Shown: positions 2,517-58,491, counted from the first letter of the stretch. The stretch is 64,000 nt of DNA from an uncultured Dehalococcoidia bacterium (GCA_964492335.1 CAZBJX010000006.1:1963-65962), one strand, 5' to 3'. Translations and numbers: made by a program. The notes: a model not told the origin generated them from the letters alone.

Positions 2517-2545
2517 TTGAGTATCAAACCGGAGTTGGGTAAACT
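2517..2545 (+). promoter_or_regulatory. Sigma70-like promoter for propeller surface protein: -35 TTGAGT (2517-2522), 17-nt spacer, -10 TAAACT (2540-2545); SD GGGAGG 8 nt before ATG 2564
   Basis: Hexamer spacing and position relative to the start codon; lower-GC island in an otherwise GC-rich region. Confidence 0.35.
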
Positions 2546-2563
2546 AGTCAGGGAGGAAATGCC

Positions 2564-6129: not shown

Positions 6130-6152
6130 GGGTGGACCTCATGGGTGGACCT
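6127..6152. repeat. Tandem duplication of a 13-mer (CATGGGTGGACCT x2) that, on the minus strand, duplicates the hypA SD-spacer-ATG module (GAGGTCCACCC-ATG twice)
   Basis: The sequence catgggtggacct recurs immediately at 6127-6139 and 6140-6152, between the AOR stop (6152-6154) and the hypA start (6127-6129). Confidence 0.6.
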
Positions 6153-8071: not shown

Positions 8072-8343
8072 AGCACCTGGCCCGCCGGCGGCCCGGCCTG
8101 CTGAAGGCCCGAGCCGCCCGGTCCTCCATTGTACCCGAATACAGGCGGGGGTGATCAAGCCCTGAGGGCAGCGGCCCATCATCCTACGCGATCGATTCCG
8201 GCCTTGATTGACGCTGGTTTGGCGGCGATGGTAGTCTGGGAAACGCCCCGCCACCGCGAGTTGAGCTTGCCGTACAGCGATGGAAGGGCCCCGGCCTGAG
8301 CACGTATGTTGTACCGCCGGTTCCGGCGGAGAGGAGGCAGACC

Positions 8344-23946: not shown

Positions 23947-24046
23947 CGGCCGTCGCGGGGGGAGCGCCCCGGGGAGCCCGGGGTTTGCCACCGGGGTGAA
24001 AAGACGATAGCATGGCTTCTGCAGCGGCTGTCGAAAGACGGAAGGG

Positions 24047-30699: not shown

Positions 30700-30802
30700 G
30701 GTCAATCTCCCTTCAGCTTTCTCTGTCGCTTGCCCTTGGTAACCGTCAGCCGCCTTGCGGCGGCGGCCCATCCCGTATCCGGCATCCCCCGTCTCCGCCT
30801 CA

Positions 30803-32824: not shown

Positions 32825-32834
32825 GGCTTGCTCC

Positions 32835-33638
32835 TCAGTCGTGGTCCACCACGTAGTTGCGCAATGTGCCGATCTTCTCGATCTTGATCTCGACGACATC
32901 GCCGGGCCTCATCGGGCCGATGCCGGACGGCGTTCCGGTGGCGATGACGTCCCCCGGCAGCAGGGTCATGATGCAGGATACGAAGCTGACGATCTGGTCC
33001 ACGCCGAAGATGAGGTCGCTGGTGCGCGCCGACTGGCGCAGTTCCCCATTGACGAAGGACTCCACGGCCAGGTCTTCGGGATCGGCCTCGATCTCGATCC
33101 ACGGGCCTATCGGCGCGAAGGTGTCGTGCCCCTTGGCCCTGGTCCACTGCCCATCTGACTTCTGAGAGTACCGCTCCGACACGTCGTTGAAGCAGGTGTA
33201 TCCCAGGACGTATCGCCTGGCCTGTTCCCGCGTGACCCCCCGGGCCTGCCGGCCGATGACCACGGCCAGCTCCGCCTCGTAGTCCACCCGGCGCCGGTCC
33301 TGCCGGGGCAGGACGATCCGGTCCTCCGGCCCGATGACCGCCGTGGGGGGCTTGAGGAAGAGGAGCGGAACAGCAGGAATAGGCAGGCCCGTTTCGATGG
33401 CGTGGCTGCGGTAGTTGACCCCCAGGCAGACGATCTTGGAAGGGGTGCAGGGGGCCAGCAGCTTCACCTCGTCCAGGCGGTGCTCCCGGCCGTCGAGCTG
33501 GTACTGCAACCCGTGCTGGCGGCGGGATGAAAACGGGCTGTTTTGGAAGGCCCAGACATGGTCGCCATCGATCATCCCGTACCGCGGCCGGCCGCCGCTC
33601 CTGAAGCGTACGATGCGCAAGCTCACCTCCCTGGCCAA
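32835..33638 (-). CDS. Fumarylacetoacetate hydrolase (FAH) family protein (2-keto-4-pentenoate hydratase / HpcE-like)
   Basis: CLGVNYRSHAIE, the metal-binding E/D pattern, GDVIATGTPSGIG near the C-terminus. Confidence 0.8.
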   Translation of the reverse strand: MAREVSLRIVRFRSGGRPRYGMIDGDHVWAFQNSPFSSRRQHGLQYQLDGREHRLDEVKLLAPCTPSKIVCLGVNYRSHAIETGLPIPAVPLLFLKPPTAVIGPEDRIVLPRQDRRRVDYEAELAVVIGRQARGVTREQARRYVLGYTCFNDVSERYSQKSDGQWTRAKGHDTFAPIGPWIEIEADPEDLAVESFVNGELRQSARTSDLIFGVDQIVSFVSCIMTLLPGDVIATGTPSGIGPMRPGDVVEIKIEKIGTLRNYVVDHD

Positions 33639-33773
33639 CTAACCGCGACGGCCGTGTCTCCCGGTCCGGCGTGCATGCATGATGTTGACTCGGAAGCAAT
33701 TGTGTGACAGAATACACTTGTCCAGATGTAAAGGATTATAGCATCCAGCGTAGCCAGATGCAAGAGAGCAGGC

Positions 33774-34760
33774 GTGACAAAAGAGCCATCTGTATCCAAG
33801 CGCATTGATCTCAGTGACCTGGACCTGCGGCTCATCAGGCTGCTGGAGTCCGACTCGCGGAGCACCCAGTCGGGGCTGGCGGCCAAGCTGGGCATCAGCC
33901 GCCCCACGGTGGGCGCCGTCATGCAGAAGCTGACGGAGGCCCGGGTGATACGGCCGGTGTGCCTGGCAGACCACGTGGCCCTGGGGTACACGGACAGCGT
34001 GGTCTTCGGCATCAACACCATGCCGGGGAAGATGCTCAAGGTGGCCGGGGCCCTGGCATCCATGGCCCCCGTTCACTGGGTCGCCGTCTGCGCCGGGCCC
34101 TTCGACATCATGGCCTGGGGCCTCTTCAAGGGGAGGGGCGAGGTGCTGGAGTTCCTGACAGGCGAGCTGGGCAGGGTGCGGGGCATGTCGCGGTTCGAGA
34201 CGGTGATGTGCCAGGAGGTCAAGATATCCCCGGCGCTCCTCTCCGCGGACGAGGGCTACCGGCCGGGCGGGAGGCAGGTCCCGCTGGACCGGCTGGACGT
34301 GGCCCTCATCGGCACGCTGCAGCGGGACAGCCAGCAGACCGCCGCCGACCTGGCCCTGAAGCTGCGCACCAGCAAGCCCACCATCCTGCGCCGGATGAAG
34401 CGGCTCCATGACGAGGGCGTCATCAGGCTGGTGACCATGGTCGATCCCCGGGCCCTGGGATACAGCCTGGTGGTCTCCTCGGGCCTCAAGGTGGCCCCCG
34501 ACAGGATCGACGAGGTGGTGGAGGCGGTGGGGAACCACCGCAGCGTGCACAGTGTGGCGCTGTGCACCGGGCGGTACGACGTGCTGGCCTGGATGATCTT
34601 CCGGGACCGGCCGGAGATGATGGACGTGCTGAGCGGCCAGCTGGGCAAGATCCATGGCATCAGGAGCATGGAGACCGTCACCTGTCTGAAGATAGTGAAG
34701 GCTTCGTTCATGTACGTGAACTGGCAAGGGGATCTCTGGGAGAGTCTGAAGGAGGAGTGA
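33774..34760 (+). CDS. Tandem (duplicated) Lrp/AsnC-family transcriptional regulator, paralog 2 (GTG start)
   Basis: Two AsnC-type halves (DLRLIRLLESDSRSTQSGLAAKLGISRPTVGAVMQKL...; DVALIGTLQRDSQQTAADLALKLRTSKPTILRRMKRL...). Confidence 0.8.
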   Translation: MTKEPSVSKRIDLSDLDLRLIRLLESDSRSTQSGLAAKLGISRPTVGAVMQKLTEARVIRPVCLADHVALGYTDSVVFGINTMPGKMLKVAGALASMAPVHWVAVCAGPFDIMAWGLFKGRGEVLEFLTGELGRVRGMSRFETVMCQEVKISPALLSADEGYRPGGRQVPLDRLDVALIGTLQRDSQQTAADLALKLRTSKPTILRRMKRLHDEGVIRLVTMVDPRALGYSLVVSSGLKVAPDRIDEVVEAVGNHRSVHSVALCTGRYDVLAWMIFRDRPEMMDVLSGQLGKIHGIRSMETVTCLKIVKASFMYVNWQGDLWESLKEE

Positions 34761-34768
34761 GCAGGCCA

Positions 34769-36691
34769 ATGAACTATGATCGTCTGTTTGAGCCCGGCAA
34801 GATCGGGAAGATGGACCTGAAGAACCGGATAGTGATGCCCGCCATGGGCGTCTCCCTGTCAGACGCCAGGGGGTCGGCCACTGACAGGGAGATCGCCTAC
34901 TATGCGGCCAGGGCCAGGGGAGGGGCGGCCCTCATCACGCCGCACTACGCCTCGGTCAGCGCCGATTCCTCGCTGCCGTACACCATCGTCATCAGCGACG
35001 ACGGGCAGGTGAAGCACTGGAAGGCCCTGGCCGATGCCGTCCATGCGGCCGGGTCCAAGCTGTCGGTGCAGCTGATGCACATCGGCATGATCTACCTGTA
35101 CTCGGGGTTCGTTCCTGAAGGCATGGCCATCAAGGTGCCCAGCACCACCCTGTGGCTGAAGAGCACCTACAGCTACCACGTGCTCAACGAAAAGGAGATC
35201 GAGGGGTACATCGAGGACTTCGGCCAGGCCGCCCGGCGGGCCAGGGAGGCCGGGGCTGACGCCGTCGAGCTGCATGCCTGCCACGGCTGCCTGGTCAGCA
35301 CCTTCATGTCCCCCCTGACCAACAAGCGGACGGACCAGTGGGGTGGGAGCGTGGAGAACCGGGCCCGGTTCGCCCGCCGGATACTGGAGCGCATGAGGGA
35401 GGTGGTGGGGCCGGAGTTCCCCATCATCGTGCGCATGAATGCCAGTGATGATATCGAAGGCGGCGTCAGCATAGAGGAGGCCATGGAGCAGGCCTCCATC
35501 ATGGAGAAGGCCGGCGCGGATGCCATCAGCGTGTCCTCCGGCATGGAGTTCTGGACGCCCCAGGGGATCCCGGCCTACCCCTTCCCGGAGGGGGCCATGG
35601 TCCCGCTGGCGGAGAAGATCAAGCAGGCGGTCAAGGTCCCGGTCATCGCCGCGGGCAAGATCACCCCCGAGGTGGCCGTCAGGGTCCTGGAGGAAGGCCA
35701 GGCCGATTTCGTAGCCCTGGGGCGGCCCCTGCTGGCGGACTCCGACCTGCCGAACAAGATCCGCGAAGGGCGCCGGGAGGACGTGCGGAACTGTCTCTAC
35801 TGCAACAACTGCCTGCGGATGGAGACGGGCACTCCGTCCTGCACCGTCAACCCCTTCCTCTTCCGGGAGTCCCGGTATCCGCTGAAGCCGGCGGAGAAGG
35901 CGAAGAAGGTCATGGTTGTCGGGGGAGGCCTGGCCGGGATGGAGACGGCCGTGCTCCTGGCCGAGCGGGGCCACAAGGCGACCATCTACGAGATGACCGG
36001 CGAGCTGGGCGGCCAGTGGAACGTGGCCTGCGCCTCGCCGGGGAAGGGCAGCTACCGGCACCTCACCGACTACCTGAACAAGCAGATAGCCCGGCTGAAG
36101 ATACCGGTGGAGCTCCACCAGCAGGTCACCCGCGACACGGTGATCAAGGCGGCGCCGGACACCGTGGTCCTGGCCACCGGCGCGGTGCCCATCGGCCTGA
36201 GAGTGCCGGGGGCTGACAAGAAGCATGTCATCCAGGGGCATGACGTCCTGGCGGGCAAGGTCGGCGTCCAGGGCCGGTCCGTGGTGGTCGGTGGCCGCTT
36301 CATCGGCATGGAGGTGGCCATCAAGCTGGCCGAAGAGGGCCAGCCGGTCTCCATCATCACCCGCGGGGGGCTGGGGGAGAACGGAGTGAAGCTGGAGAAG
36401 TTCACCTTCCAGTCCATCGCCAACAGGCTTATCGAGCTGGGGGTGCCCCTCTATCTGAACGCCACCGTGGTGGAGATCAACGACAAGTCGGTGATCATAA
36501 TGATGAACGGCGAGATATACCCGGTGCCGGCCGACACGGTGATCTTCTCCGTGGGCATGCGGTCGGTGGCCGGCCTGGCCAGGGAGCTGGAGGGGACCGG
36601 CATCGAGTATCACCTGGTGGGGGACTGCGTCAAGCCCAGGGATGCCTGCGAGGTCCACACCCAGGCGGCCAAGATCGCCGCGCTGATCTAG
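34769..36691 (+). CDS. Two-domain NADH:flavin oxidoreductase (OYE-like + FAD/NAD-binding), paralog 3; start ATG 34769 (MNYDRLFEPGKIGKM)
   Basis: HACHGCLVSTFMSP, NCLYCNNCL Cys cluster, VVGGGLAGMETAV Rossmann. GGAGGAG SD is embedded in the last codons of the upstream Lrp gene. The track ORF start at 34562 is an over-extension overlapping the Lrp gene. Confidence 0.85.
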   Translation: MNYDRLFEPGKIGKMDLKNRIVMPAMGVSLSDARGSATDREIAYYAARARGGAALITPHYASVSADSSLPYTIVISDDGQVKHWKALADAVHAAGSKLSVQLMHIGMIYLYSGFVPEGMAIKVPSTTLWLKSTYSYHVLNEKEIEGYIEDFGQAARRAREAGADAVELHACHGCLVSTFMSPLTNKRTDQWGGSVENRARFARRILERMREVVGPEFPIIVRMNASDDIEGGVSIEEAMEQASIMEKAGADAISVSSGMEFWTPQGIPAYPFPEGAMVPLAEKIKQAVKVPVIAAGKITPEVAVRVLEEGQADFVALGRPLLADSDLPNKIREGRREDVRNCLYCNNCLRMETGTPSCTVNPFLFRESRYPLKPAEKAKKVMVVGGGLAGMETAVLLAERGHKATIYEMTGELGGQWNVACASPGKGSYRHLTDYLNKQIARLKIPVELHQQVTRDTVIKAAPDTVVLATGAVPIGLRVPGADKKHVIQGHDVLAGKVGVQGRSVVVGGRFIGMEVAIKLAEEGQPVSIITRGGLGENGVKLEKFTFQSIANRLIELGVPLYLNATVVEINDKSVIIMMNGEIYPVPADTVIFSVGMRSVAGLARELEGTGIEYHLVGDCVKPRDACEVHTQAAKIAALI

Positions 36692-42607: not shown

Positions 42608-43576
42608 TCACTTCCTGCCATCCCCGGCGGGCGGCTGCGCCCCGAAGCCCCAGTCGGCCCCGAGGTTGTCCTTGGTCACCTTCATCAGCACCATCACCTC
42701 ATGGCTGACCACCCCGGGCACCGTGCCGAGGTACTCCCTGACGAACCTGGACAGGTCCTCCCGGGTCTTGAGGAAGATGGTGAAGAGCAGATCGAAGGAC
42801 CCGGTGGTAATGACCACGTGGTGCGTCTCCGGCGATGCGGAGAGGGTGGCGGCGGCCTGGTCGATCATGCCCGGCCGCATGCTGAGGCCGATGTTGGCCC
42901 TGATGGTGTAGCCCAGGCGGACCGGGTCGGCCACGGCGATGACCTGCAGGACCTGGTCCTCGATCAGGCGCTCGATCCGCCGCCGGGCCGTGGCCTTGCT
43001 GCACCCGGCGGGGCCGGCCAGGCTGGTGTAGGCGCTGCGGGGGCTGGCGCGGAGCTGCCGCAGCAGGCGGTAGTCCAGCTCGTCGAGCCGCCGCCGGGGA
43101 GGCCTGCCCCCGCCGGCGGATATGCTCCTGTTGGCCAGCATGGAGAGAGAGAACTTGGCCACCTTGAGGCTGACCATGGTCTCGGCCCTGGTGATGTCCT
43201 TGATGGGCGCCAGGCTGGAGCTGACGAAATCCCACAGGTCCACCGTCTCCGGCAGGGACACCGAGGCGAAGATGTCGTAGCGCCCGGTGTGCATGGACAC
43301 GTGGTACACCTCGCGGATGTCCGCCAGCCGGCGGGCCACGGAATCGATCCGGCTGGGCGGCGCATTGATGGCCACCAGCAGCTGCCGGGTGTGGCCGATG
43401 GCCAGCGGGTCGACCAGCGTCAGGAAGCGGATGACCCTGTGCCGCTCCAGCCGCTCGAGCCGGTCGGCGATGGTGGACCAGCTCAGCCGCAGGTTGCCCG
43501 CCAGATCGGTGACGCTCTGCCGCCCGTCCCGCTCCAGCTCGGCGATGAGGCGCAGGTCAAGCTCGTCCAGTAGCAC
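42608..43576 (-). CDS. Tandem (duplicated) Lrp/AsnC-family transcriptional regulator, paralog 3
   Basis: Two AsnC-type halves (LDLRLIAELERDGRQSVTDLAGNLRLSWSTIADRLERL...; DYRLLRQLRASPRSAYTSLAGPAGCSKATARRRIERL...). Confidence 0.8.
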   Translation of the reverse strand: MLLDELDLRLIAELERDGRQSVTDLAGNLRLSWSTIADRLERLERHRVIRFLTLVDPLAIGHTRQLLVAINAPPSRIDSVARRLADIREVYHVSMHTGRYDIFASVSLPETVDLWDFVSSSLAPIKDITRAETMVSLKVAKFSLSMLANRSISAGGGRPPRRRLDELDYRLLRQLRASPRSAYTSLAGPAGCSKATARRRIERLIEDQVLQVIAVADPVRLGYTIRANIGLSMRPGMIDQAAATLSASPETHHVVITTGSFDLLFTIFLKTREDLSRFVREYLGTVPGVVSHEVMVLMKVTKDNLGADWGFGAQPPAGDGRK

Positions 43577-43653
43577 AGGCTGCCACCTTGATGATCTCTT
43601 TCACGCCGATAAGGGATGTCAATGACATAGTTCTGGTTTCTTCTAGCATATTG

Positions 43654-44262: not shown

Positions 44263-44295
44263 GGCGCGGCTTCATGCCAGGGAGGATAAACCGGG

Positions 44296-46737
44296 ATGGT
44301 CATGGAAGCCAGTGAAGCGAAGGCGGCCGGGGGCAGGCCCTGCCGGCCCAGCACTCCCCGGACCCGCAGGCTGAAGGAAGTCTACATGGGGCACAGGCCC
44401 GGCATCTGTGTCGAACGCAGCGTGCTGGTCACCGATTCCTACCGGAAGACGGAGGCCCTCCCGCCGGTGCTGCGGCAGGCCATGGCCTTCGACCGGGTGC
44501 TGTCGGAGATGCCCATCTGGGTCCAGGACGGCGAGCTTATCGCGGCCAACATCGCCTCGAGGCCCAGGGGGGCCTTTCTCTTCCCGGAATACGACGACAC
44601 CTGGCTGAAGAGGGAGCTGGACACCATCTCCACCAGGAAGGATGACCCCTGGCTTCTGAGCGATGAGGACAAGGCCCGGGTCAGGGGCTGCATGGACTAC
44701 TGGCGGGGCCGCAGCCTCTCCGCGGTGTGCGACGCGCTGACCGTGGACGAGGTGCGGCAGGCGGAGAGGAACTCCTTCATCGACATCCGCATGGGCAAGC
44801 AGGGCGGCATCGGGCACATCGTGCCCGATATCGAAACGGTCATAGAGCGGGGCCTGAACTCGTTGATAGAAGCGGCCGAGGACCATATCCGGCGCCTGGA
44901 CCTGGCCAACCCCGAGGGATTCGCCAGGCTGCCCTTCCTGCGGGCGGTGGTGATAGCGGACAGGGCGGTGATCAAGTGGGCCGGGCGGTTCGCCGCGCTG
45001 GCCAGGGAGAGGGCGGCGGCGGAGCCGGACCCCGGGAGGAAGCGGGAGCTCGAGCAGATGGCCGAGGCCTGCGAGCGGGTGCCGGCCCATCCGGCCCGCA
45101 GCTTCCACGAGGCCCTGCAGGCGGTGGCCCTCATCATGGCCTCGGTCCAGATAGAGACCAACGGGGTCTCCATCGGGACGGGACGGCTGGACCAGTACTG
45201 CTTCCCACATTATGAGAGGGACATCAGGGCGGGGGCGATCACCCGGGAGCAGGCGCTGGAGCTGCTGGAGTGCCTGTGGCTCAAGCTGGCCGAATCGAAC
45301 CGGGTGGTGAGCGAGGGATTCACCCACACCCAGAGCGGCTATCCCTTCTGGATCCAGGTGCCGATAGGGGGGCAGACCGTGGACGGCTACGATGCCACCA
45401 ACGATCTGTCCTACCTCCTGTTGGAGGTGTCCAGCAACATGCAGCTCCACGAGCCCACGGTGTCGGCCAGGATACACAAGAGGACGCCGGACGTCTTCCT
45501 CATGAAATGCTGCGAGGCCATCAGGGCCCATGGGGGAGGCAACCCCGCCCTGTTCAACGACGAGGTCATCATCCCCAGCCAGCTGGCCTGGGTCCCCGGA
45601 ATCACCAAGGAGGACGCCTATGACTACTCGGTGATCGGCTGCTCCGAGATCGCCTTCGCCGGCAAGGGGACCGAGGGCATCGCCTACCACGCCATGAGCC
45701 TGGGCCGGGTCCTGGAGCTGATGCTCCAGGGGAAGGACCCGGTGACCGGGGCGCCGCTGGCGTCAGGCCCGGGCGGCATGCTGCAGTGGCGGACCTTCGA
45801 CGACATGATGGAGGCCTTCACTGAGAAGGTGCGGGCCCTCTCCCGGGCCATGTTCCTGCAGCAACTGCCGCTGATCGAGGCCCACGTGGCCCACCGGCCC
45901 TGCCCGCTCCTCTCCTCCCTGACCAGGGACTGCATCAGCCGGGGCCGCAGCTACTATGACGGCGGGGCCCTGTACGGGAACCGCGCGGCCAACGCGTGCA
46001 TCGTCGGCCTGGCCACCCTGGCCAACTCGCTGGCGGCGGTCAGGAGGCTGGTCTTCGACGACCGGGCCATCACCATGGACCAGCTGAAGCATGCCCTGGA
46101 GACCAACTTCGAGGATACGGCCACCAGCCCCACGGGCCCGGCCATCCGCCAGATGTGCCTGCGCGCCCCGAAGTACGGCAACGACGACCCATACGTGGAC
46201 CGCCTGGCCAAGGACAGCCTGAACATCGTGGTGAGGGAGATGCGCAGGCACCAGACCCGGCCGGGCCAGGGCTACGGGGCCACCATCTCCCCGGTGACGG
46301 CCCACATGAGCTACGGGGCCATCTGCGGCGCCACGCCCGACGGGCGGAGGGCGGGGGAGCCCCTCAGCGACTCCTGCTCGCCGGCCCAGGGCACCGATGT
46401 CAACGGCCCGACGGCGGCCATCAAGTCGGTGGCCGGACTGGAGCACATGAACCTGGTGCAGGGGACGATCTTCAACATGAAGATGCACCCCGGGCCCCTG
46501 GAGACCCGGGCGGGAATGCGCAAGTGGGCGGACCTGGTCCGCACCTACTTCGACCTGGGGGGGTGGGAGGTCCAGTTCAACGTGGTCAGCTCAGACACCC
46601 TGAGGGAGGCGCAGCGGCGCCCCGAGGAGCACCGGGACCTGGTGGTCCGGGTGGTGGGCTACAGCGCCTTCTTCGTGGAGCTGGAGAAGGTGGTCCAGGA
46701 CGACATCATCGCCAGGACGGAGCACTGCGGGGCGTAG
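44296..46737 (+). CDS. Glycyl radical enzyme, PFL-like fold, eliminase class (Cys-x-Glu active loop), substrate unknown
   Basis: C-terminal glycine-radical motif RVVGYSAFF. Active-site loop VIGCSEIAF (Cys-x-Glu as in glycerol/propanediol dehydratase, CutC and HypD, not the Cys-Cys of PFL). N-terminal ICVERSVLVTDSYRKTE...IWVQDGELIAAN typical of GRE dehydratases/lyases. 813 aa. Confidence 0.9.
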   Translation: MVMEASEAKAAGGRPCRPSTPRTRRLKEVYMGHRPGICVERSVLVTDSYRKTEALPPVLRQAMAFDRVLSEMPIWVQDGELIAANIASRPRGAFLFPEYDDTWLKRELDTISTRKDDPWLLSDEDKARVRGCMDYWRGRSLSAVCDALTVDEVRQAERNSFIDIRMGKQGGIGHIVPDIETVIERGLNSLIEAAEDHIRRLDLANPEGFARLPFLRAVVIADRAVIKWAGRFAALARERAAAEPDPGRKRELEQMAEACERVPAHPARSFHEALQAVALIMASVQIETNGVSIGTGRLDQYCFPHYERDIRAGAITREQALELLECLWLKLAESNRVVSEGFTHTQSGYPFWIQVPIGGQTVDGYDATNDLSYLLLEVSSNMQLHEPTVSARIHKRTPDVFLMKCCEAIRAHGGGNPALFNDEVIIPSQLAWVPGITKEDAYDYSVIGCSEIAFAGKGTEGIAYHAMSLGRVLELMLQGKDPVTGAPLASGPGGMLQWRTFDDMMEAFTEKVRALSRAMFLQQLPLIEAHVAHRPCPLLSSLTRDCISRGRSYYDGGALYGNRAANACIVGLATLANSLAAVRRLVFDDRAITMDQLKHALETNFEDTATSPTGPAIRQMCLRAPKYGNDDPYVDRLAKDSLNIVVREMRRHQTRPGQGYGATISPVTAHMSYGAICGATPDGRRAGEPLSDSCSPAQGTDVNGPTAAIKSVAGLEHMNLVQGTIFNMKMHPGPLETRAGMRKWADLVRTYFDLGGWEVQFNVVSSDTLREAQRRPEEHRDLVVRVVGYSAFFVELEKVVQDDIIARTEHCGA

Positions 46738-46761
46738 CCGGTGGGCCACGGAGCGGGCACC

Positions 46762-47697
46762 ATGAGCGTGGCGATCTCCGGGCAGGTCTTCAACATCCAG
46801 CGCTACTCCATTCACGACGGCGCCGGGATCAGGACCCTGGTCTTCCTCAAGGGCTGCCCGCTGCGGTGCCTGTGGTGCTGCAACCCGGAGTCCCAGAAGG
46901 GCGGCCCGGAGCTGGGCTTCATCGCCTCCCGCTGCGTCGGGGACAGGGGGTGCGGGGCGCCCTGCGTCCCCGCCTGCCCCATCAGCGCCATCCGGCTGGG
47001 CCCGGAGGGCCGGCCGGAGATCGACCGGGCGGCCTGCGACGCCTGCGGCCGGTGCGCCGCGGCCTGCGGCCCAGAGGCGCTCAGGGTGGTCGGCCGGGAG
47101 ATGACCGTCGCCGGGGTGATGGCGGAGGTGGAGAAGGACCGCCCCTTCTACCGGCGGTCCGGCGGGGGTATGACGGTGGGGGGCGGCGAGCCTCTGGCGC
47201 AGCACCGCTTCGCCGCGGCGCTGCTGGAGGCGGCCCGGGACGCCTACCTGCACACGGCGCTGGAGACCTGCGGCCACGGCCCGTGGGCCCATCTTGAAGG
47301 GCTGCTCAGGCATGTCGACCTGCTGCAGTTCGATATCAAGCACATGGACGCCGCCAGGCACCGGGAGCTGACCGGGCAGTCCAACGACCTGGTGCTGGCC
47401 AACCTCAAGAGGGTGCCGGCCGTGAAGCCCCCCGGAGAGGTGATCATCAGGGTCCCGGTGGTCCCGGGGTGCAATGACTCGGCGGACAACGTGCGGGAGA
47501 CGGCGGCGCTGGTGGCCGGGCTGGGCTTCCGGCAGGTGGAGCTGGTGCCCTACCACCGGCTGGGGGCCCCCAAGTACGTCCAGTACGGCATCCCGGACCC
47601 GCTGCCGGACTGCCCTTCAGCCTCTGGGGGCCGCCTGGAGGAGCTCAGGAGGATTGTAGAAGAGGCCGGCCTGACGGAGACAGGCGGGACCATCTGA
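46762..47697 (+). CDS. Glycyl-radical enzyme activating protein (radical SAM, with additional 2x[4Fe-4S] ferredoxin-type inserts)
   Basis: CPLRCLWCCNPE (CxxxCxxC radical SAM). Ferredoxin Cys blocks CVGDRGCGAPCVPACP and CDACGRCAAACGP. Typical of activases for eliminase-class GREs. Confidence 0.9.
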   Translation: MSVAISGQVFNIQRYSIHDGAGIRTLVFLKGCPLRCLWCCNPESQKGGPELGFIASRCVGDRGCGAPCVPACPISAIRLGPEGRPEIDRAACDACGRCAAACGPEALRVVGREMTVAGVMAEVEKDRPFYRRSGGGMTVGGGEPLAQHRFAAALLEAARDAYLHTALETCGHGPWAHLEGLLRHVDLLQFDIKHMDAARHRELTGQSNDLVLANLKRVPAVKPPGEVIIRVPVVPGCNDSADNVRETAALVAGLGFRQVELVPYHRLGAPKYVQYGIPDPLPDCPSASGGRLEELRRIVEEAGLTETGGTI

Positions 47698-48744: not shown

Positions 48745-49452
48745 ATGGAGGGAGCGATGGACCGGCAGATCACCGAGGACGAACTGATCAGCAACGACGG
48801 CCAGGACGGGCGCCCGGCATGGGTGGCCTACCGGGGGAAGGTGTACGACGTCTCCGCCAGCCGGCTGTGGCGGGGGGGCGCCCACATGAAGCGCCACCAG
48901 GCGGGGAAGGACCTCACGGCGGAGTTCGGGGCAGCCCCTCACGACGAGGTTGTTCTGCAGGACATGCCCGTGGTGGGCAGGCTGGCGGCCGCGGAGAAGA
49001 AGGGCCTGCCGCCGCTGGTGCAGATCTATCTGGACCAGCACCCGCACCCCGTCTCGGTCCACTTCCCCATCGCCCTGACGCTGGCCTCGGCGGCTTTCCT
49101 GGCCGCCCACCTGGTCACCCGGGCCGGTGGCCTGGCGGATGGCGCGTACTACCTGCTTCTGGGGGTGGCCGTGATAGCCCCGCTGTCCGCGCTGGCCGGG
49201 GTGTCCAGCTGGTGGTTCAACTACGGGCACCGGCGGACGGGGACGTTCGTGGGCAAGGCCGTCCTCTCGGCGGCTCTCTTCGTGACGGGGGTAGTGACGG
49301 CGGTCGTGTGGTCCCTCCAGCGCCAGGCGGTGGTGGACCGGGAGGCGGTGGCCTGGGTCTGCCTGGCGCTGCTGCTGGTGATGTCCGTGCTGGTGCTGTC
49401 ACTGGGGCACCTGGGCGGGTCCCTGGTGTTCCCGCCGCGGAAGAAGCCCTGA
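48745..49452 (+). CDS. Cytochrome b5-like heme/steroid-binding domain fused to a 4-TM membrane domain
   Basis: YRGKVYDVSASRLWRGGAHMKRHQAGKDLTAEFGAAPHDE aligns with the cyt b5 core (YDVTKFLEEHPGGEEVL...AG.DATE.F...H). It is followed by four hydrophobic helices. Confidence 0.55.
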   Translation: MEGAMDRQITEDELISNDGQDGRPAWVAYRGKVYDVSASRLWRGGAHMKRHQAGKDLTAEFGAAPHDEVVLQDMPVVGRLAAAEKKGLPPLVQIYLDQHPHPVSVHFPIALTLASAAFLAAHLVTRAGGLADGAYYLLLGVAVIAPLSALAGVSSWWFNYGHRRTGTFVGKAVLSAALFVTGVVTAVVWSLQRQAVVDREAVAWVCLALLLVMSVLVLSLGHLGGSLVFPPRKKP

Positions 49453-49575
49453 CGGCGGTGCGCCATCACCGGACGATGTCCCTTGAGGCGGACCACGCCC
49501 GGTGCGATGGTCTCGACGGCAACCCGGCATCCGCGGGGTGCCCCGGGCACTTCACGGGGGAAGGAGCGTGAAGCG

Positions 49576-50085
49576 ATGACAGGCAAGGGCAAGGAGGCCC
49601 CGGATTTCTCCGCTGCCGACAGCGAAGGCCGCAATGTGAGGCTCTCCGACTTCAAGGGGCGCAAGAACGTCGTGCTGGTGTTCAACCGGGGCTTCTCCTG
49701 ACCCCACTGCCGGAAGCACATGGCGCAGTTGCGTCATGACTACCAGGGGTTCGTGGACCGGCAGACGGAGGTCATCGCCATCGGCCCGGAGACCCCGGAG
49801 GCCTTCGCCCGCTGGTGGCGCAGAAACCGGATGCCCTTCATCGGCATCGGTGATCCCCGGCATGTCATCGCCGGGCTCTTCGGCCAGCAGGTGAAGCTGC
49901 TGAAGCTGGGGCGCATGCCGGCGCTGTTCGTGATCGATAGAGAGGGGCGGATGCGCAACGTGCATCGCGGGACGTCCATGGGGGACATCATGGCCAACGA
50001 GGAGGTACTGGCCCTGCTGGACGATATCAACCTGGAGCGGCCCACAGGGGGGGCCTCCCCCGGCGCTCCCGGGCAGAGTAGATGA
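49576..50085 (+). CDS. Selenocysteine-containing peroxiredoxin (PrxU-like, AhpC/TSA-redoxin fold); UGA at 49699-49701 decoded as Sec at the peroxidatic position
   Basis: Track ORFs 49483..49701 and 49720..50085 are in the same frame, separated only by TGA. Read-through gives ...RKNVVLVFNRGFS-U-PHCRKHMAQLRHDYQGF...IAIGPETPE...PALFVIDREGRM.... FS-U-P aligns with Prx FVCP/FTPxC. GGGGAAGGAG SD precedes ATG 49576. Confidence 0.65.
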
Positions 50086-50102
50086 GAAAGGAGAGCACCA
50101 CA

Positions 50103-50540
50103 ATGAAGGTCCCGGAGTACGTAACCAAGGCTGAAGTGAAGAAGGTATGCAAGGAGCTGGGCCTCAAGGACTGGTCGGCCCGCAGGGGCACCGACGTCAC
50201 CGAGAAGGAGGCGGCCATCATCCTCAAGGCTGTTGATACCGACGGCATGCCCGTACCGGTGGAGACCATGAGGAAGGGGCTGGAGGTGGAGCTGGAACAT
50301 GGCACCATGTACCCGTTTGCCAACGTGACCAACAACCACCCCATTCTCACCGCCAAGATCGTGCTGGCCCACCTCAAGGAGACCCTGGACTACTACGAGC
50401 GCCTGGAGGTCATGGAGATCGAGGGGGACCTGCTCCACGCGGTCAAGGCCAGGGACCTCAAGAAGATCGAGCAGAAGTACCGCAAGCTGGTGGCGGCCCA
50501 GGAGCTTCTCTGGCGGGAAGCGGGCAAGGAACTCGGGTAG
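50103..50540 (+). CDS. Hypothetical protein (146 aa), co-transcribed downstream of the selenoperoxiredoxin
   Basis: AAAGGAGAG SD 7 nt before ATG 50103. No recognisable catalytic motif. Charged, soluble. Confidence 0.5.
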   Translation: MKVPEYVTKAEVKKVCKELGLKDWSARRGTDVTEKEAAIILKAVDTDGMPVPVETMRKGLEVELEHGTMYPFANVTNNHPILTAKIVLAHLKETLDYYERLEVMEIEGDLLHAVKARDLKKIEQKYRKLVAAQELLWREAGKELG

Positions 50541-50589
50541 CCCTGGCCCCGGGCCGGGACCGGCCCCCTGCCCAGCGTGGTCCAGCCGG

Positions 50590-51816
50590 TCATTTCAAGT
50601 TCAGGCGGAAGAGAGGCTCGAACGAGCTGAACAGGTCCAGGTACTGCTCCAGGTAGCGGGACAGCAGGAAGTTCTGGCGGACCTTCTCCCTGGCGCGGCG
50701 CCCCATGGCGTCGCGCAGCCCCCTGTCCTTGACCAGTTGAACGATCCTCAGGGCCGCCTCTTCCACGGAAGAGACCAGGAAGCCGTTGACCTCGTCGTCG
50801 ATCTGGAAGCGGATGCCCCCCGCATTGCCCCCGATGACCGGGGTGCCCTTCCACATGGCTTCGGACACCGTCAGCCCGAACCCCTCGCGCAGCGATTTCT
50901 GCAGCACCACGGCTGCCTTCCGCTGGAGCGCGTTCACCAGGTAGCTGTCCTGGATGCTGTGTATTATGATCCGCTCCTCCCGGCTCTCCAGTAGGGAGTC
51001 GTAGACCTCTTCACCCTCCGGGTCGTCGGAGGCCACGTTTCCCACCAGGACCAGGGTGCAGTCGACCTCCCTGCGGGCGATCTTGAACGCCTCGATGACC
51101 CCCTTCGGGTCCTTCCAGGTGTCGAAGCGCGAGATCTGCACCACCAGCGGCAGGTCGGTGGGGATGCCGTAGTGGCGGAGCCGCTCGTCTATCTCCGCTT
51201 CGGTGAGGTCCCTGTTGATAATGGAGAAGGGGTCAATCGCCGGTACGAAGACCACCTGCGGAGGCCCGATTTCCTGAACATAGTCCGGGCTGCTCACGAT
51301 GACCGCGTCGTACTGCTCGATGAAGCGGACCAGGTACTCCCAGAGCTCCGGGTTGGGGTGGGTCAGGTCTATGTGGCAGCGCCAGACCCAGGGCACTCGC
51401 TTCCGGTAGTGCTCAATCAAGGGCAGGGGCTGGGGGTCGTGAACGATGATGATGTCATGGTTGTTCAGGTGGTTGCGGATGGAGTTCTCGAAGACCACCT
51501 CCTCGTACAGCTCCATCTTGCGCTGGCTGAGGTTGATCTCTCCGCCCTGGAGGGCATTGTGCATCTTCTTGGTCACCGTGAAGAAGTCCGGGGGGCCGTG
51601 GATGGCCCGCCACCCGACCCTTATCCCCAGGCTGTTCATCAGGAGGGTCATGGAAGACAGCAGCTGGGCCACGCCGCCGCCATAATAGGTGGAGTTGATG
51701 TTGGTGATGTGGAAGTCGTGCAGCGGCCTGGCCTTGCGGATGATGCGCTCCACGCTCTCGGCCCCGATCAGGGGCTCGTAGTCTTCGATGGTAGTGGTCC
51801 GGAAAGCTCTCGTCAT
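50590..51816 (-). CDS. treT: Trehalose synthase TreT (NDP-glucose:glucose glycosyltransferase, GT4); start trimmed to MTRAFRTTTIEDYEPLIG (ATG 51814-51816)
   Basis: Characteristic TreT N-terminus (...EDYEPLIGAESVERIIRKARPL...HITNINSTYYGGGVAQLLSSM...FFTVTKKMHNALQG). GT4 C-terminal EGFGLTVSEAMWKGTPVIGG. GGAAGGAG SD. Confidence 0.8.
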   Translation of the reverse strand: MTRAFRTTTIEDYEPLIGAESVERIIRKARPLHDFHITNINSTYYGGGVAQLLSSMTLLMNSLGIRVGWRAIHGPPDFFTVTKKMHNALQGGEINLSQRKMELYEEVVFENSIRNHLNNHDIIIVHDPQPLPLIEHYRKRVPWVWRCHIDLTHPNPELWEYLVRFIEQYDAVIVSSPDYVQEIGPPQVVFVPAIDPFSIINRDLTEAEIDERLRHYGIPTDLPLVVQISRFDTWKDPKGVIEAFKIARREVDCTLVLVGNVASDDPEGEEVYDSLLESREERIIIHSIQDSYLVNALQRKAAVVLQKSLREGFGLTVSEAMWKGTPVIGGNAGGIRFQIDDEVNGFLVSSVEEAALRIVQLVKDRGLRDAMGRRAREKVRQNFLLSRYLEQYLDLFSSFEPLFRLNLK

Positions 51817-53982: not shown

Positions 53983-54534
53983 CTACACCACGGCCTCGGT
54001 CTGCATCCTGTGCTCGCCCCGCAGGAACCCCACGGTCAGCCGGTGGCCCGGCGCCAGCCCGGCCAGCACCCGGGCCAGGTCGTCCGCGGTGCTGATGGGG
54101 CGCAGGTTGACCTCGATGATGATATCACCCTGCTGCAGGCCGGCGCTCTCCGCCGGCGAGCCGGGCCTGACGCTGCCCACGAAGGCCCCGAAGAGTGGCA
54201 CGGCCCCCGCCTTCCTGGAGACCCTGCTGGCGTCGGCGATCTTGAGGCCGAAGGACACCCTCGGAGGGGCCTTGGCCCCGCCCGGCCCGGTCCCCGGCCC
54301 GCCCCGGGCGGCCAGCAGCTCTTCCAGCCGCTGCCGGTCGAACCCGATGACGTGCTCGTCGCCCACCGCGATCACGGGGACGCCCATCTGGTTGGTCCTG
54401 CGCACCATTTCCTCGGCGGCCACACGGTCCTTCGAGACGTCCTTCTCGATGTAGGGGATGCCCTTCTGCGAAAGGAACTCCTTCGCGTAGACGCAATACG
54501 GTCAAGTCGGGGTCGTGTAGAGCGTGATTTCCAT
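53983..54534 (-). CDS. Selenocysteine-containing glutaredoxin-like domain fused to a C-terminal PDZ domain; UGA at 54502-54504 decoded as Sec in a U-P-Y-C redox motif
   Basis: The minus strand from ATG 54532-54534 reads MEITLYTTPT-U-PYCVYAKEFLSQKGIPYIEKDVSKDRVAAEEMVRRTNQMGVPVIAVGDEHVIGFDRQRLEELL, a canonical glutaredoxin/NrdH layout with TGA replacing the first Cys of CPYC. It is in frame with track ORF 53983..54423 (PDZ-like GSPAESAGLQQGDIIIEVN). GAAGGGAGAAGG SD precedes the ATG. Confidence 0.6.
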
Positions 54535-54614: not shown

Positions 54615-57266
54615 CTACGGCCCGCGGCGGCCGGCTGCGGACTTGTTGTCGGCCTTCCCGGCCGGCTTCTCTTCAGCCTCCCGGGCCTTCTCAAACATGA
54701 TGCCGTCATCCCCGGCGTCGATGGTCACCCGGTCGCCGTCCTTGAACGTGCCGTCCAGCACCTTGAAGGCCAGCGGGTCCAGCATGCGCCGCTGGATGGT
54801 CCGCTTCAGGGGCCTGGCCCCGTAGTTCGGGTCGAAGCCTTCGCTCACCAGGAACTCCCGGGCGGCGTCGGTCAGCTCCACCGTCATGTGGCGCTCCTCC
54901 AGCCTCCGCTGCAGGCCCCTCATCTGGATGTCGACGATCTGCATGATCTGGTCGCGGCTAAGGGTGTGGAAGATGATGATCTCGTCCACCCGGTTGAGGA
55001 ACTCCGGCCGGAAGTGCGAGCGCAGCTCCTCGGTGACGCGCTGGCGGACCTCGTCCTCGCGGTCCGGGCCCAGGTCGGTGAACCAGTGACTGCCCAGGTT
55101 GCTGGTCATGATGACCACGGTGTTCTTGAAATCGACGGTGCGGCCGTGGCCGTCGGTCAGCCGGCCGTCCTCCAGTATCTGCAGCAGGGTATTGAAGACA
55201 TCCGCGTGGGCCTTCTCGATCTCGTCGAAGAGCACCACGGAGTACGGGCGCCGCCGCACGGCCTCCGTAAGCTGCCCCCCCTCGTCGTAGCCGATGTACC
55301 CCGGCGGAGCGCCGATGAGCCGGGACACGGTATGCTTCTCCATGTACTCAGACATGTCCAGCCTTATCATGGCCTGCTCGTCGTCGAACAGGAACTCCGC
55401 CAGCGCCCGGGCCAGCTCCGTCTTGCCCACGCCCGTGGGGCCCAGGAAGATGAAGCTCCCCAGGGGGCGGTTGGGGTCCTGGAGCCCCGCCCTGGCGCGC
55501 CGGATGGCATTGCTCACGGCGCTCAGGGCCTCGTCCTGCCCCACCACGCGCTGGTGAAGGCGGTCCTCCATCGTCAGCAGCTTGTGGACCTCGCCCTCCA
55601 CCAGCTTGCTGACGGGGATGCCGGTCCAGTGGCTCAAGACCTCGGCGATGTCCTCTTCGTCCACCTCTTCCTTGAGCATCCTCTCGCCGTGGCCGGTGTC
55701 GGCCAGGCCGTCCTCCATTTCCTTCAGGCTCTTGATCAGATCCACCAGGCTGCCGTACTTGAGGCGGGCCGCCCTCTCCAGGTCTCCGGACTGCTCGGCC
55801 TGCGCCACTTCCACCTTGGCCTGCTCGATCTGCTCCTTGAGCCTCTGCATGCCGCCGATGGACTCCTTCTCCTGCTGCCACTGCGCCCGCAGGCGGTTGC
55901 CCCGCTCCTTCAGGTCGGCCAGCTCCTTGTCGATGTTGGCCAGCCTCTCCTTCGACGTGCTGTCGGTCTCCCTCATGAGCGCCTGTCGCTCGATCTCCAG
56001 CTGCATGGTGCGCCGCTGCACTTCGTCGAGATTGGCGGGCACGCTGTCGATCTCCATGCGCAGCCGGCTGGCCGCCTCGTCCACCAGGTCGATGGCCTTG
56101 TCCGGCAGGAAACGGTCGCTGATGTAGCGGTGGGACAGCACGGCGGCGGCCACCATGGCGGCGTCCTTGATGCGCACGCCGTGGTGCACCTCGTAGCGCT
56201 CCTTCAGGCCGCGCAGGATGCTGATGGTGTCCTCCACCGAGGGCTCCACCACCATCACCGGCTGGAAACGGCGCTCCAGGGCGGCATCCTTCTCGATGTG
56301 CTTGCGGTACTCGTTGAGAGTGGTGGCCCCCACGCAGTGCAGCTCCCCTCGGGCCAGCATGGGCTTAAGCATGTTGGAGGCGTCCATGGCGCCCTCGGCG
56401 GCGCCGGCGCCGATCACCGTGTGCAGCTCGTCGATGAAGAGGATGGTCCGGCCCTCGGACTCGGTGATCTCGCGGAGCACCGCCTTGAGCCTCTCCTCGA
56501 ACTCCCCCCGGTACTTGGTGCCGGCCACCATGGAGCCCAGGTCCATGGCCACCAGGCGCTTGTCCTTCAGCCCTTCGGGCACGTCCCCCTTCACGATGCG
56601 CTGGGCCAGCCCCTCGACGATGGCCGTCTTGCCCACGCCCGGCTCGCCGATGAGGACCGGGTTGTTCTTGGTGCGCCGCGACAGGACCTGGATCACGCGG
56701 CGGATCTCCTTGTCGCGCCCGATCACCGGGTCGAGCTTGCCGCGGCGGGCGATCTCCGTCAGGTCCCGGCCGTATTTCTCCAGGGCCTGGTACTTCCCCT
56801 CGGGGTTGAGGTCCGTCACCCGCTGGCCCCCGCGGATGGTAGTCAGCGCCTGGTAGATGCTGTCCCTGGTGACGCCGTGGCTGTCGAGCAGCCGGGTGGC
56901 CGGGCCCTTTTCGCCGTCGGCGACAATGGCCGTCAGCAGGTGCTCGGTGCTGACATAGTCGTCCCTGAGCCGCTCGGCTTCCTGCCGGGCGTTGTCCAGG
57001 GCCCTCTTCAAACGGGGGGACATGACCAGCTGCACCGGGCCGTATGCCTTCGGCTGCCGGTCCAGCTCGGCCTTCATCTGCTGCCTGACCTGCCGCAGGT
57101 CCACACCCAGCTTCAGCAGCAACTGCGGGACCACGCCGTCGGCCTGCTCCAGCAGGGCCGTCAGCAGGTGCTCCACGTCCAGCTGACTGTGATTGGCGTT
57201 CTCGGCGATCTGCTGGGCCGCCAGGATGGCCTCCTGGGCCTTCTCAGTGAACTTGTTCAGGTCCAT
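54615..57266 (-). CDS. clpB: ATP-dependent chaperone ClpB
   Basis: N-domain [18 protein letters not shown]. Two AAA+ modules ([15 protein letters not shown]; [15 protein letters not shown]). Long middle coiled-coil. 883 aa. Confidence 0.95.
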
Positions 57267-57310
57267 GCCTCCTCACCTCTCATTCCGGGGGTTGTCGGCG
57301 CGCCGCCGCA

Positions 57311-58324
57311 TCATCCGCGCAGCCGGGCCAGCTCCTCGAAGAGCTTGCGCTCCTTGTCCGAGAGCTTGTCCGGAAGCACGACCGATACCTCCGCGAGGAG
57401 GTCGCCGTGCTGTGCCGGCTCGCCCAGCCGCGGCATGCCCTTGCCCTTGAGCCGGAACACCCGCCCGTTCTGCGTCTCGGCCGGGATCTTCAGCGCCACC
57501 TTGCCGTTCAGGTTGGGGACGGTCACCTCACCTCCCAGCACCGCCGTCGTCAGGGGCACTTTGAGCCTGGAGTGGAGGTCGTCCCCCTTGCGCTCGAAGG
57601 TGCTGTGCGGCAGGATGTGCACCACCAGGTAGAGGTCGCCGGCCGGGCCGCCTCCCATCCCCGGCCCTCCCTGCCCCGCCAGCCGCACCTTCGACCCCTC
57701 CTGCACGCCGGCCGGGATCCTGGCCTCTATGCGGCGGGACTTCCCGCTGCCGCCCTCCATCTGGAACATGCGGGTGGTCCCGCTGTATGCCTCCTCCAGG
57801 GTGATCTCTATGGGCTGCTCGAAGTCCTGGCCCCGCCGCGCCCGCCCGGCGGTGCGGTAGCGCCCGCCGGCGCCCGGGCCCGCACCGGGTTGGTCGCCGA
57901 AGAAGGTGTGGAAGAAGCTGGAGAAGGGGCTCTCACCGCCGCCGCCGAAGAGGTCCTGCAGGTCCTCCTCGGTCATGGTCTGGTAGTGGACGCCGCCGCC
58001 GCCGCGGCTGCCTGGCTGGCCGGCGCCGGCGAAACCGTAGCGGCTCCAGTCGAACGGCTGCCCGCCGGCCCCGCCGCCGGCCTTCTGCCACTGCTCGTAC
58101 TCCTTCCAGTGGGCCCCGAGCTCGTCGTACTTCTTGCGCTTCTCCTGGTCTCCGAGGACCTCGTAGGCTTCGTTGATCTCCTTGAACCTGGCCTCGGCTT
58201 CCTTGTTGCCGGGGTTCACGTCCGGATGGTGCTGGCGGGCGAGCTTGCGGTAGGCCGCCTTGATTTCCTTGGCGGTGGCCTTCTTGTCCACGCCCATTAT
58301 CTTGTAGTAGTCCTTGTAGTCCAT
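57311..58324 (-). CDS. J-domain co-chaperone (DnaJ/CbpA-like, no zinc-finger domain; Gly-rich linker)
   Basis: DYYKIMGVDKKATAKEIKAAYRKLARQHHPD with the HPD motif. Gly-rich region. C-terminal substrate-binding domains. No CxxCxGxG repeats. Confidence 0.85.
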   Translation of the reverse strand: MDYKDYYKIMGVDKKATAKEIKAAYRKLARQHHPDVNPGNKEAEARFKEINEAYEVLGDQEKRKKYDELGAHWKEYEQWQKAGGGAGGQPFDWSRYGFAGAGQPGSRGGGGVHYQTMTEEDLQDLFGGGGESPFSSFFHTFFGDQPGAGPGAGGRYRTAGRARRGQDFEQPIEITLEEAYSGTTRMFQMEGGSGKSRRIEARIPAGVQEGSKVRLAGQGGPGMGGGPAGDLYLVVHILPHSTFERKGDDLHSRLKVPLTTAVLGGEVTVPNLNGKVALKIPAETQNGRVFRLKGKGMPRLGEPAQHGDLLAEVSVVLPDKLSDKERKLFEELARLRG

Positions 58325-58491
58325 GCTCTCACCTCAGTCCGGCGTATGGCCTCCGGAGTCATCATGACCGCAACCGGTCCCTCCAGTCAATAGCTTCAGC
58401 CAGATCACTCGGGAAGCCCCGGCGGCCCTCTTCCCGCCGGCGGTCTCCAGCCTTCCCCGGCCGTTGCCCCGATCGGTCCGCCATGCCGGCT

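Follow-up and report, generated by a model that had tools for sequence, protein, structure and literature searches.

The window, a 64,000-nucleotide stretch of DNA from an uncultured Dehalococcoidia bacterium, holds at 49576-50085 a reading frame for a redoxin-type protein that is broken once, by an in-frame TGA. An earlier note on this DNA had joined two ORFs (49483..49701 and 49720..50085) into one gene; both are present in a common frame, and on translation the TGA at 49699-49701 is their sole interruption. From ATG 49576 the product begins MTGKGKEAPDF, runs through VLVFNRGFS, the single internal stop and PHCRKHMAQL, and ends in GQSR before the terminal stop. With the TGA read as Cys, Pfam finds one AhpC-TSA domain (PF00578; residues 5-128, E=6.7e-26) and a Redoxin match (E=4.2e-19). 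Since residues 5-128 lie on both sides of the TGA, the AhpC-TSA domain runs across it, and the redoxin-type sequence that the note had recognised downstream belongs to a domain covering both halves. The Shine-Dalgarno sequence that it had placed before the ATG is also there (Table 1), and independent gene callers use the same ATG for the N-terminal fragment. In six assemblies, public gene calls split the gene into products of 41 and 121 amino acids.

The N-terminus of the 169-residue protein is without a hydrophobic segment, signal peptide or membrane anchor, and its lack of a hydrophobic segment suggests that the protein is cytoplasmic. A scan of 49300-50700 found neither promoter nor terminator. 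When all the ORFs of 81 homologous loci were clustered, no partner gene occurred in more than 13 of them, so that functional inference from operon structure is not possible; the DUF5661 gene that lies downstream is common to only six close relatives among these loci.

Table 1. Coordinates of the gene, its recoding signals and a second selenoprotein gene in the window
Feature	Position	Strand	Remarks
Shine-Dalgarno-like AGGAG	49562..49566	+	read directly; 9 nt 5' of ATG 49576; putative function
Predicted selenoprotein gene	49576..50085	+	169 codons and stop (50083-50085); Sec42 from internal TGA
UGA, predicted Sec42	49699..49701	+	TGA in 79/80, TGC in 1/80 (best 80 of 236 species-level relatives)
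Redox motif U42-P43-H44-C45 (UxxC)	49699..49710	+	aligns with ResA C-P-H-C and BCP T-P-G-C
Predicted SECIS hairpin, CAUGGCGC-AGUU-GCGUCAUG	49719..49738	+	8 bp in the window, about -11 kcal/mol; from folds and comparison
Conserved core of hairpin	49721-49736	+	UGGCGC-AGUU-GCGYCR; 22-37 nt downstream of UGA
Apical loop AGUU	49727-49730	+	invariant G 49728; loop begins 25 nt after UGA
Pro115	49918..49920	+	invariant in both homolog alignments (A1, A2); cis-Pro column, Arg column of peroxiredoxins
Predicted Grx-PDZ selenoprotein gene	ATG 54534, TGA 54504-54502, stop 53985-53983	-	MEITLYTTPT-U-PYCVYAKEF...; 4.4 kb from the Prx-like gene

Conservation of the UGA codon

Relatives were sought by scanning one genome per GTDB species, and the best 80 of the 236 that were found were examined. 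By their record titles, 63 of these 80 are Chloroflexota (Dehalococcoidia, Anaerolineae, Caldilineales and Thermoflexales), the closest matches to the window protein being Dehalococcoidia/Chloroflexota MAGs at 72-75% identity; the other 17 are Syntrophus (among them S. buswellii DM-2, represented by its complete genome, with the ~60% identical homolog at locus L032), Smithella, other Desulfobacterota-type MAGs and one Calditrichaceae. On either side of the UGA these best 80 share the conserved motif NRGF-x-U-P-[YFH]-C-R-x-H-M-A-Q-L-R. Five more distant homologs have Cys (TGT or TGC) at the Sec column, and the Cys homologs P0002, P0003, P0005, P0030, P0047 and P0049 read C-P-[YF]-C there, with TGT/TGC codons confirmed.

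Might the TGA be a sequencing error, the mark of a pseudogene, or the end of the first of two small genes, for 41 and 121 amino acids? Public gene callers do divide the gene in just this way, and ~95 of the best 120 database relatives are C-terminal fragments of 102-126 residues that start at a Met seven codons past the TGA. The evidence from populations and from relatives is nevertheless heavily against it. The C-terminal fragment (P0001) is present on 17 contigs, from which six loci were fetched (L001-L006; five distinct run accessions are listed for them, and the sixth is shown as ERR13731079). All six are separate Logan assemblies of the same population and all keep the TGA, while over 4 kb they are separated from the window by 0-30 SNPs, four of them by 8-30. 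The SNPs within the gene, one upstream of the TGA (49638) and two downstream of it (49974 and 50013), are all at synonymous third-codon positions of the single frame. Across the codon alignment of 81 relatives, both halves are conserved as protein and vary freely at synonymous positions, which is the pattern of purifying selection in one frame, and a single domain bridges the junction. With the TGA kept in six assemblies that differ at strain level and in 79/80 of the best relatives, it is no sequencing error, the concern that the note itself had raised, and an artefact or a gene in decay is so improbable as to be negligible.

Readthrough of the UGA, or its reassignment to Trp or Gly (genetic codes 4 and 25), would also preserve the frame, and of 24 full-length database homologs nine carry 'W' at the Sec column, the other 15 having Cys. 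In L088, however, the codon at the 'W' column is TGA, and translation with code 11 does not give its database protein; the database 'W' is accordingly a TGA read with another code. In the window TGA terminates about half of the coding-like ORFs and is therefore an ordinary stop in this organism. A six-frame scan of the 64 kb for TGA codons with at least 30 coding-like codons on each side found only TGA 49699-49701, and the interrupted frame is far more than chance would produce. In all, just two in-frame TGAs were seen in the 64 kb (the second, in the gene for a glutaredoxin-like protein, is taken up below); each takes the place of the first Cys in a CxxC motif and has a conserved hairpin after it, so that a meaning other than selenocysteine is exceedingly improbable. 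The UGA is a real and conserved recoding site in a protein of AhpC-TSA/Redoxin fold, as the note had proposed, and homologs carry Cys there.

A hairpin downstream of the UGA

Comparison among relatives gives a strong signal for a conserved hairpin past the UGA. Codons were threaded on to the protein alignment of 81 distinct sequences, and positions in the hairpin are counted from the U of UGA (0). Each of the pairs 22-37 through 27-32 can form in 74-81 of the 81 sequences, and hairpin 22-37 is the sole structure returned in the RNAalifold consensus of all 81. Double-sided compensatory changes are found in L082 (G-C to C-G at 23-36) and in L043 (G-C to U-G at 24-35); the alternation of G-C and G-U at pair 24-35 otherwise matches the choice between CGC and CGU. 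The loop is AGUU in 77 of the 81 sequences, GGUU in three and AGGU in one, with G29 present in every one of them.

The codons that make up the hairpin are correspondingly fixed. In the block that starts 21 nt past the UGA, Ala is GCG in 79/80, Gln is CAG in 77/77, Leu is UUG in 80/80 and Arg is CGY in 79/80 sequences. Synonymous entropy is ~0 for this GCG-CAG-UUG-CGY run, as against about 1-2.3 bits in other conserved four- and six-fold columns, and two-fold columns elsewhere in the 81 sequences show ~1 bit; the Cys45 column, which is TGC in 78/81, is an exception to this near-maximal variation. In all the other Leu columns UUG is in the minority, and a hand estimate from background codon frequencies puts the chance of the four-codon combination at ~1% per sequence. 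A decisive control comes from five distant Cys homologs (L087 and L089-L092, with TGT/TGC at the Sec column), which instead use GCU/GCC, CAA, CUG/CUA/UUA and CGG and from which the hairpin is absent. L070, the only close relative with TGC, has kept the stem with a GCUU loop and looks like a recent Sec-to-Cys change, judging from its sequence.

The folding energy of one sequence would not have picked out this structure: the 62 nt after the UGA, folded singly, do no better than shuffles (z = -1.15), and the SECIS assignment therefore rests on comparative data. Scanned against Rfam at gathering thresholds, the window as a whole gave no match, which is uninformative for bacterial SECIS elements. 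In E. coli fdhF, the G-U that contacts SelB likewise occupies positions 2-3 of a four-base loop, GGUC, the distance from UGA to loop being ~7 nt shorter there than here. Bacterial SECIS elements characteristically show a small, G-containing apical loop immediately after the UGA (PMC1088965), and the hairpin at 49719-49738, conserved and specific to the TGA forms of the gene, is predicted to be such an element. Since the hairpin lying within the coding sequence is a predicted bacterial SECIS, the UGA at 49699-49701 would be read as selenocysteine.

The stem that the note had pointed to was a different one, CUGCC...GGCGCAG, starting 6 nt past the UGA. That sequence is present, but it is not the conserved structure: it appears neither in single-sequence minimum-free-energy folds nor in the RNAalifold consensus of the 81 sequences, and the conservation of its bases comes mostly from the Y-C codons and from its 3' arm being shared with the true hairpin. 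From the alifold consensus a potential mini-hairpin, UGCC-NNN-GGCA at +9 to +19, is likewise missing.

Register of the active site

Which column of the peroxiredoxin active site holds the selenocysteine decides what kind of selenoprotein this is. Placement at the peroxidatic Cys would make it a PrxU-type peroxiredoxin (TxxU) working by the standard peroxiredoxin mechanism; this was the identification given in the note, and three observations lean its way, since the protein belongs to the same Pfam family, PF00578, its overall fold matches Prx/BCP structures, and F-S-U-P resembles the F-V-C-P of 2-Cys peroxiredoxins. That last resemblance is superficial. In phmmer alignments with the BCP structures 5enu (YPKDNTPGC) and 3drn (YPKDDTPGS, its Cys mutated), U42 pairs with the Thr of the T-P-G-C motif and Cys45 with the peroxidatic Cys; with ResA 3c71 (WGTWCPHCKKEF), U42 is the first Cys and Cys45 the second Cys of CxxC. 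These are three independent alignments against the TxxU reading, and they place the UGA on the Thr column and not, as claimed, on the peroxidatic one, where Cys45 stands. Inspection of the sequence says the same: counting from the strand VLVF, C45 is nine residues away and U42 six, and nine is the spacing from strand to peroxidatic Cys in peroxiredoxins (VVLFFYPLDFTFVCP).

The surroundings of the motif have changed as well. PxxxTxxC has become RxxxUxxC, with Arg38 at the Pro position and Sec42 at the Thr position, and an invariant Pro stands in the peroxiredoxin Arg column. In ResA the partner of Pro115 is the cis-Pro, in P-T-T-F-L-I-N, and in 5enu it is the catalytic Arg, in R-S-T-F-L-I-D; an ungapped register anchored on F-[VL]-I-D also puts Pro115 in the Arg column. 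This column is the least certain of the assignments, because the gapped 3drn alignment pairs the catalytic Arg with the nearly invariant Arg113 and not with Pro115. With the NCBIfam equivalog model for PrxU (NF040737) the protein reaches 21.4 bits, where the cutoff is 270. All this leaves a PrxU-type enzyme very unlikely.

The scores of other NCBIfam models are also below their cutoffs. The top match is to the SelL-related redox protein (NF040769; 72.7 bits, cutoff 120, E=2.7e-20, residues 6-96), followed by ResA (51.8 bits, cutoff 170) and BCP (44.4 bits, cutoff 140). The 66% identical Cys homolog P0003 was modelled with AlphaFold2 (pLDDT 92.6), and the solved folds nearest to the model are peroxiredoxins, the best being BCP 3drn (TM 0.85, rmsd 1.8 A). 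In the model the Sec column (Cys44 of P0003) lies directly before helix 45-62, with the second Cys in the first helical turn. As aligned and modelled, the protein is a predicted peroxiredoxin-type scaffold bearing a thioredoxin-type U-x-x-C/cis-Pro active site.

Relation to known families

Two selenoprotein families within PF00578 are kept apart in the literature: peroxiredoxin with TxxU and Prx-like with UxxC (PMC1088965; PMC2398784, Table 2; PMC13188914, Table 1). The former has been verified experimentally in Eubacterium acidaminophilum. The latter, the Prx-like thiol:disulfide oxidoreductase, has WP_010940744.1 as its representative and counts as 'predicted with high confidence', as opposed to experimentally verified (PMC13188914); it has been recorded in Syntrophus aciditrophicus, Geobacter species and Desulfotalea (PMC1794560, Table 3) and in 28 organisms as of 2016 (PMC5029168), and the reviews report no biochemically characterised member. 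The window gene is, by prediction, a member of the UxxC family and not PrxU, because U42 falls on the Thr/first-Cys column, Cys45 falls on the peroxidatic column, and the PrxU model gives 21 bits where 270 are asked for. It shares with that family (predicted by Kryukov and Gladyshev in 2004, and called 'Prx-like 1' in the GOS study) PF00578 and the Sec at the first position of the motif, Cys homologs with CxxC, and a downstream hairpin whose apical loop is small and includes G. There is essentially no difference to set against these likenesses; the subgroup to which the window gene belongs is dominated by Chloroflexota (63 of the best 80) and almost entirely Sec-containing (79/80). The representative WP_010940744.1 is from Geobacter sulfurreducens, and the window gene is linked to it indirectly, through the Syntrophus locus L032 and Table 3 of PMC1794560. 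Sequence thus places in the gene every feature by which this family, predicted about twenty years ago, is recognised.

The likenesses to other members of the superfamily are partial. PrxU has in common with the window protein the AhpC-TSA fold, a Sec residue and an anaerobe source, but its Sec is the peroxidatic residue (T-x-x-U), whereas here Sec lies three residues earlier and the peroxidatic column retains Cys. SelL and its NF040769 relatives (UxxU or UxxC) are Prx-like in fold and carry their redox motif at the start of the same helix, but the window protein is below the cutoff of that model and is aligned only in its N-terminal half; SelL itself, the subject of work by Shchedrina et al. 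in 2007, reportedly has two Sec residues. ResA, TlpA and CcmG share the CxxC register, with C-P-H-C in the ResA variant 3c71, and the Pro in the cis-Pro column. They are extracytoplasmic, whereas the window protein has no signal peptide or anchor, a fold nearer to BCP and a ResA score below cutoff. BCP/PrxQ proteins provide, in Sulfolobus Bcp1 (3drn), the closest solved structure and the best PDB sequence match, but they have PxxxTxxC and the catalytic Arg in place of RxxxUxxC and a Pro in the Arg column.

Proposed decoding and chemistry

The reading that we favour, with a probability of roughly 0.87, is that 49576-50085 encodes one cytoplasmic selenoprotein of 169 residues that has a Prx/BCP-type thioredoxin fold and a U-P-H-C centre and belongs to the UxxC Prx-like family. 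In translation, the NGUU hairpin would recruit SelB with Sec-tRNA(Sec), and Sec would be inserted at 49699-49701. Sec42, which caps the active-site helix at its N-terminus, holds the exposed position of a CxxC motif and would probably act as the nucleophile; Cys45, one turn on, occupies what was formerly the position of the peroxidatic Cys. The pair would cycle between selenol/thiol and an intramolecular Sec42-Cys45 selenenylsulfide, which a thioredoxin-type donor might re-reduce. The substrate may be a disulfide, a sulfenate or a peroxide, and the sequence cannot decide between disulfide and peroxide.

Peroxide reduction by the same protein, decoded in the same way, is a variant of the favoured reading in which Sec42 would be the peroxidatic residue, Cys45 would resolve and thioredoxin would recycle the enzyme. 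The scaffold is closest to BCP peroxiredoxins, the gene is stand-alone and its product apparently cytoplasmic, as with many antioxidant genes, and selenols react quickly with peroxides, as in GPx-type enzymes. The Pro, Thr and Arg columns of peroxiredoxin catalysis are all altered, however (the Arg column being the least certain of them), and CxxC with cis-Pro is the signature of disulfide oxidoreductases such as ResA; we consider peroxide reduction unlikely, though it is to be taken seriously. One might go further and regard the Chloroflexota/Syntrophia subgroup, which is nearly Sec-obligate, as a distinct enzyme, and not a generic disulfide reductase, with a hybrid site, U-x-x-C and cis-Pro on a BCP scaffold, in which selenium at the Thr position would be peroxidatic and the ancestral Cys resolving. 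Arg38, His48 and His130, which are invariant in this subgroup, and Arg113, which is nearly so, would belong to this site as well. If the site were of that kind, it would represent a peroxiredoxin mechanism with its catalytic roles moved by three residues, but we hold this proposal to be rather doubtful. On the favoured reading the gene has been wrongly annotated and is an ordinary representative of a known selenoprotein family that has been predicted computationally.

A second predicted selenocysteine site in the window

Searches of the 64-kb window for tRNAs, Rfam families and protein domains found no selA, selB, selD or tRNA-Sec, and LepA is the only translational GTPase in it. The second in-frame TGA of the window, 4.4 kb from the Prx-like gene and on the opposite strand, has more to say. 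It lies in a gene for a protein in which Pfam finds a glutaredoxin-like domain followed by PDZ, and residues 3-74, with U read as C, match TIGR02196 at 94 bits, above its cutoff of 88.55. The best matches are from Dehalococcoidia/Chloroflexota MAGs; full-length homologs have C-G-Y-C at the U-P-Y-C site, and NCBI gives some of the Cys homologs the name 'Uxx-star family glutaredoxin-like (seleno)protein [Dehalococcoidia bacterium]'. In three relatives the TGA is retained, together with a hairpin, GCGAARGAGUUYCUUUCGC, at +18 to +36 that has GUU in its loop. In both genes, then, the UGA is at the first Cys of CxxC and a G-U-U hairpin follows at a similar spacing, and this second gene with its UGA and putative SECIS lends indirect support to selenocysteine decoding in this genome.

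The main value of these findings is to correct an annotation; they leave the understanding of selenoprotein biology unchanged. One relative named by NCBI, a fragment of 107 amino acids, is called 'redoxin domain-containing protein', and others carry Trp at the UGA. Public gene calls nearly always cut members of the subgroup short. As no current NCBIfam model reaches its cutoff, the subgroup has probably been under-counted in surveys of the Chloroflexota selenoproteome. Dehalococcoidia MAGs are already among the bacteria richest in selenoproteins in BSepDB, with 46-49 of them (PMC13326102). Two simple signatures, the nearly invariant 16-nt core of the predicted SECIS, UGGCGCAGUUGCGYCR, and the peptide NRGFxUPxCRxHMAQLR, could recover the family, and the presence of two predicted UxxC selenoprotein genes less than 5 kb apart marks this uncultured anaerobe as a likely selenocysteine user. 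The window also carries genes of anaerobe metabolism: CODH/ACS alpha, an aldehyde:ferredoxin oxidoreductase, and a glycyl-radical enzyme with its activase.

A second selenoprotein gene

The window holds a second selenoprotein gene, Grx-PDZ, on its minus strand. Its product joins a PDZ domain to a glutaredoxin-like domain that bears a U-P-Y-C motif, and homologs have C-G-Y-C in the matching column. The TGA is kept in three relatives (L093-L095), in all of which it is followed by a hairpin, GCGAARGAGUUYCUUUCGC, at +18 to +36. The synteny with the clpB/dnaJ chaperone genes recurs in two of these relatives, L093 and L095.

Sec, Cys and Trp at the redox site of the Prx-like protein

Among the 80 closest genomes (the best 80 of 236 species-level relatives) there is a sole Cys (TGC) form of the Prx-like gene, at locus L070 (1612-1660). 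It retains the GGCGC/GCGCC stem, with a GCUU rather than an AGUU loop; this form seems to have switched from Sec to Cys recently, its SECIS now in decay. Nine "full-length" public Prx-like proteins (P0004, P0006-P0010, P0013, P0019 and P0026) have Trp in the Sec column. The DNA of the single locus checked among the nine, L088, carries TGA at that column; the Trp-bearing entries are therefore gene calls made with a TGA=Trp code. One of them, P0013, reads W-P-Y-T, with Thr in place of the resolving Cys.

The codon for Cys45, the second residue of the redox motif (49708-49710), is TGC in 78 of the 81 aligned relatives (entropy 0.23), unlike the other two-fold codons of the gene, whose usage is near 50:50. 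A mini-hairpin, UGCC-NNN-GGCA, can form at +9 to +19 after the UGA in most of these sequences; it does not appear in the alifold consensus. There may be an additional RNA-level constraint around the Cys45 codon and +9 to +19.

Genomic surroundings

Several genes of the window are markers of anaerobic metabolism (see the table); the cdhA-like gene among them, incomplete at the window edge, scores 453 bits, under the equivalog cutoff of 781. Three paralogous genes of ~700-770 aa, in which an Old-Yellow-Enzyme (Oxidored_FMN) domain is fused to Pyr_redox_2, lie within 28582-36688. G+C drops from ~0.67 to 0.61-0.63 between 12000 and 20000, a stretch with an operon for a branched-chain amino-acid ABC transporter and, next to it, the gene of an AMP-binding enzyme. 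For the 825-codon ORF, Pfam gives nothing at E<=1e-5 and the NCBIfam matches are all sub-threshold.

Features of the window outside the Prx-like gene
Feature	Position	Strand	Remark
cdhA-like, CODH/ACS alpha subunit	1-2436		anaerobic marker; truncated by window edge
825-codon ORF	2543-5020	+	coding-like composition
Aldehyde:ferredoxin oxidoreductase, tungsten-type	6152-8353		anaerobic marker
AsnC/Lrp-type regulators, tandem-domain	24011-25060, 33732-34760, 42611-43600		near Oxidored_FMN fusions
Oxidored_FMN + Pyr_redox_2 fusion 1	28582-30891	-	
Oxidored_FMN + Pyr_redox_2 fusion 2	30806-32908	-	
Oxidored_FMN + Pyr_redox_2 fusion 3	34412-36688	+	
Glycyl-radical enzyme, its radical-SAM activase, then zinc alcohol dehydrogenase	44290-47697		anaerobic markers
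DUF5661 gene	50103-50540	+	starts 18 nt past Prx-like stop
Grx-PDZ selenoprotein gene	53983-54534	-	TGA 54504-54502
clpB	54615-57272		Grx-PDZ gene directly downstream
dnaJ	57311-58333		with clpB, upstream of Grx-PDZ gene

The DUF5661 gene, whose start is preceded by GAAAGGAG, is probably co-transcribed with the Prx-like gene; the two adjoin in just 6 of the 81 loci. Heliorhodopsin genes were seen on two separate metagenomic contigs, adjoining a Cys-form Prx-like gene in one (L087) and a Sec-form Grx-PDZ gene in the other (L094).
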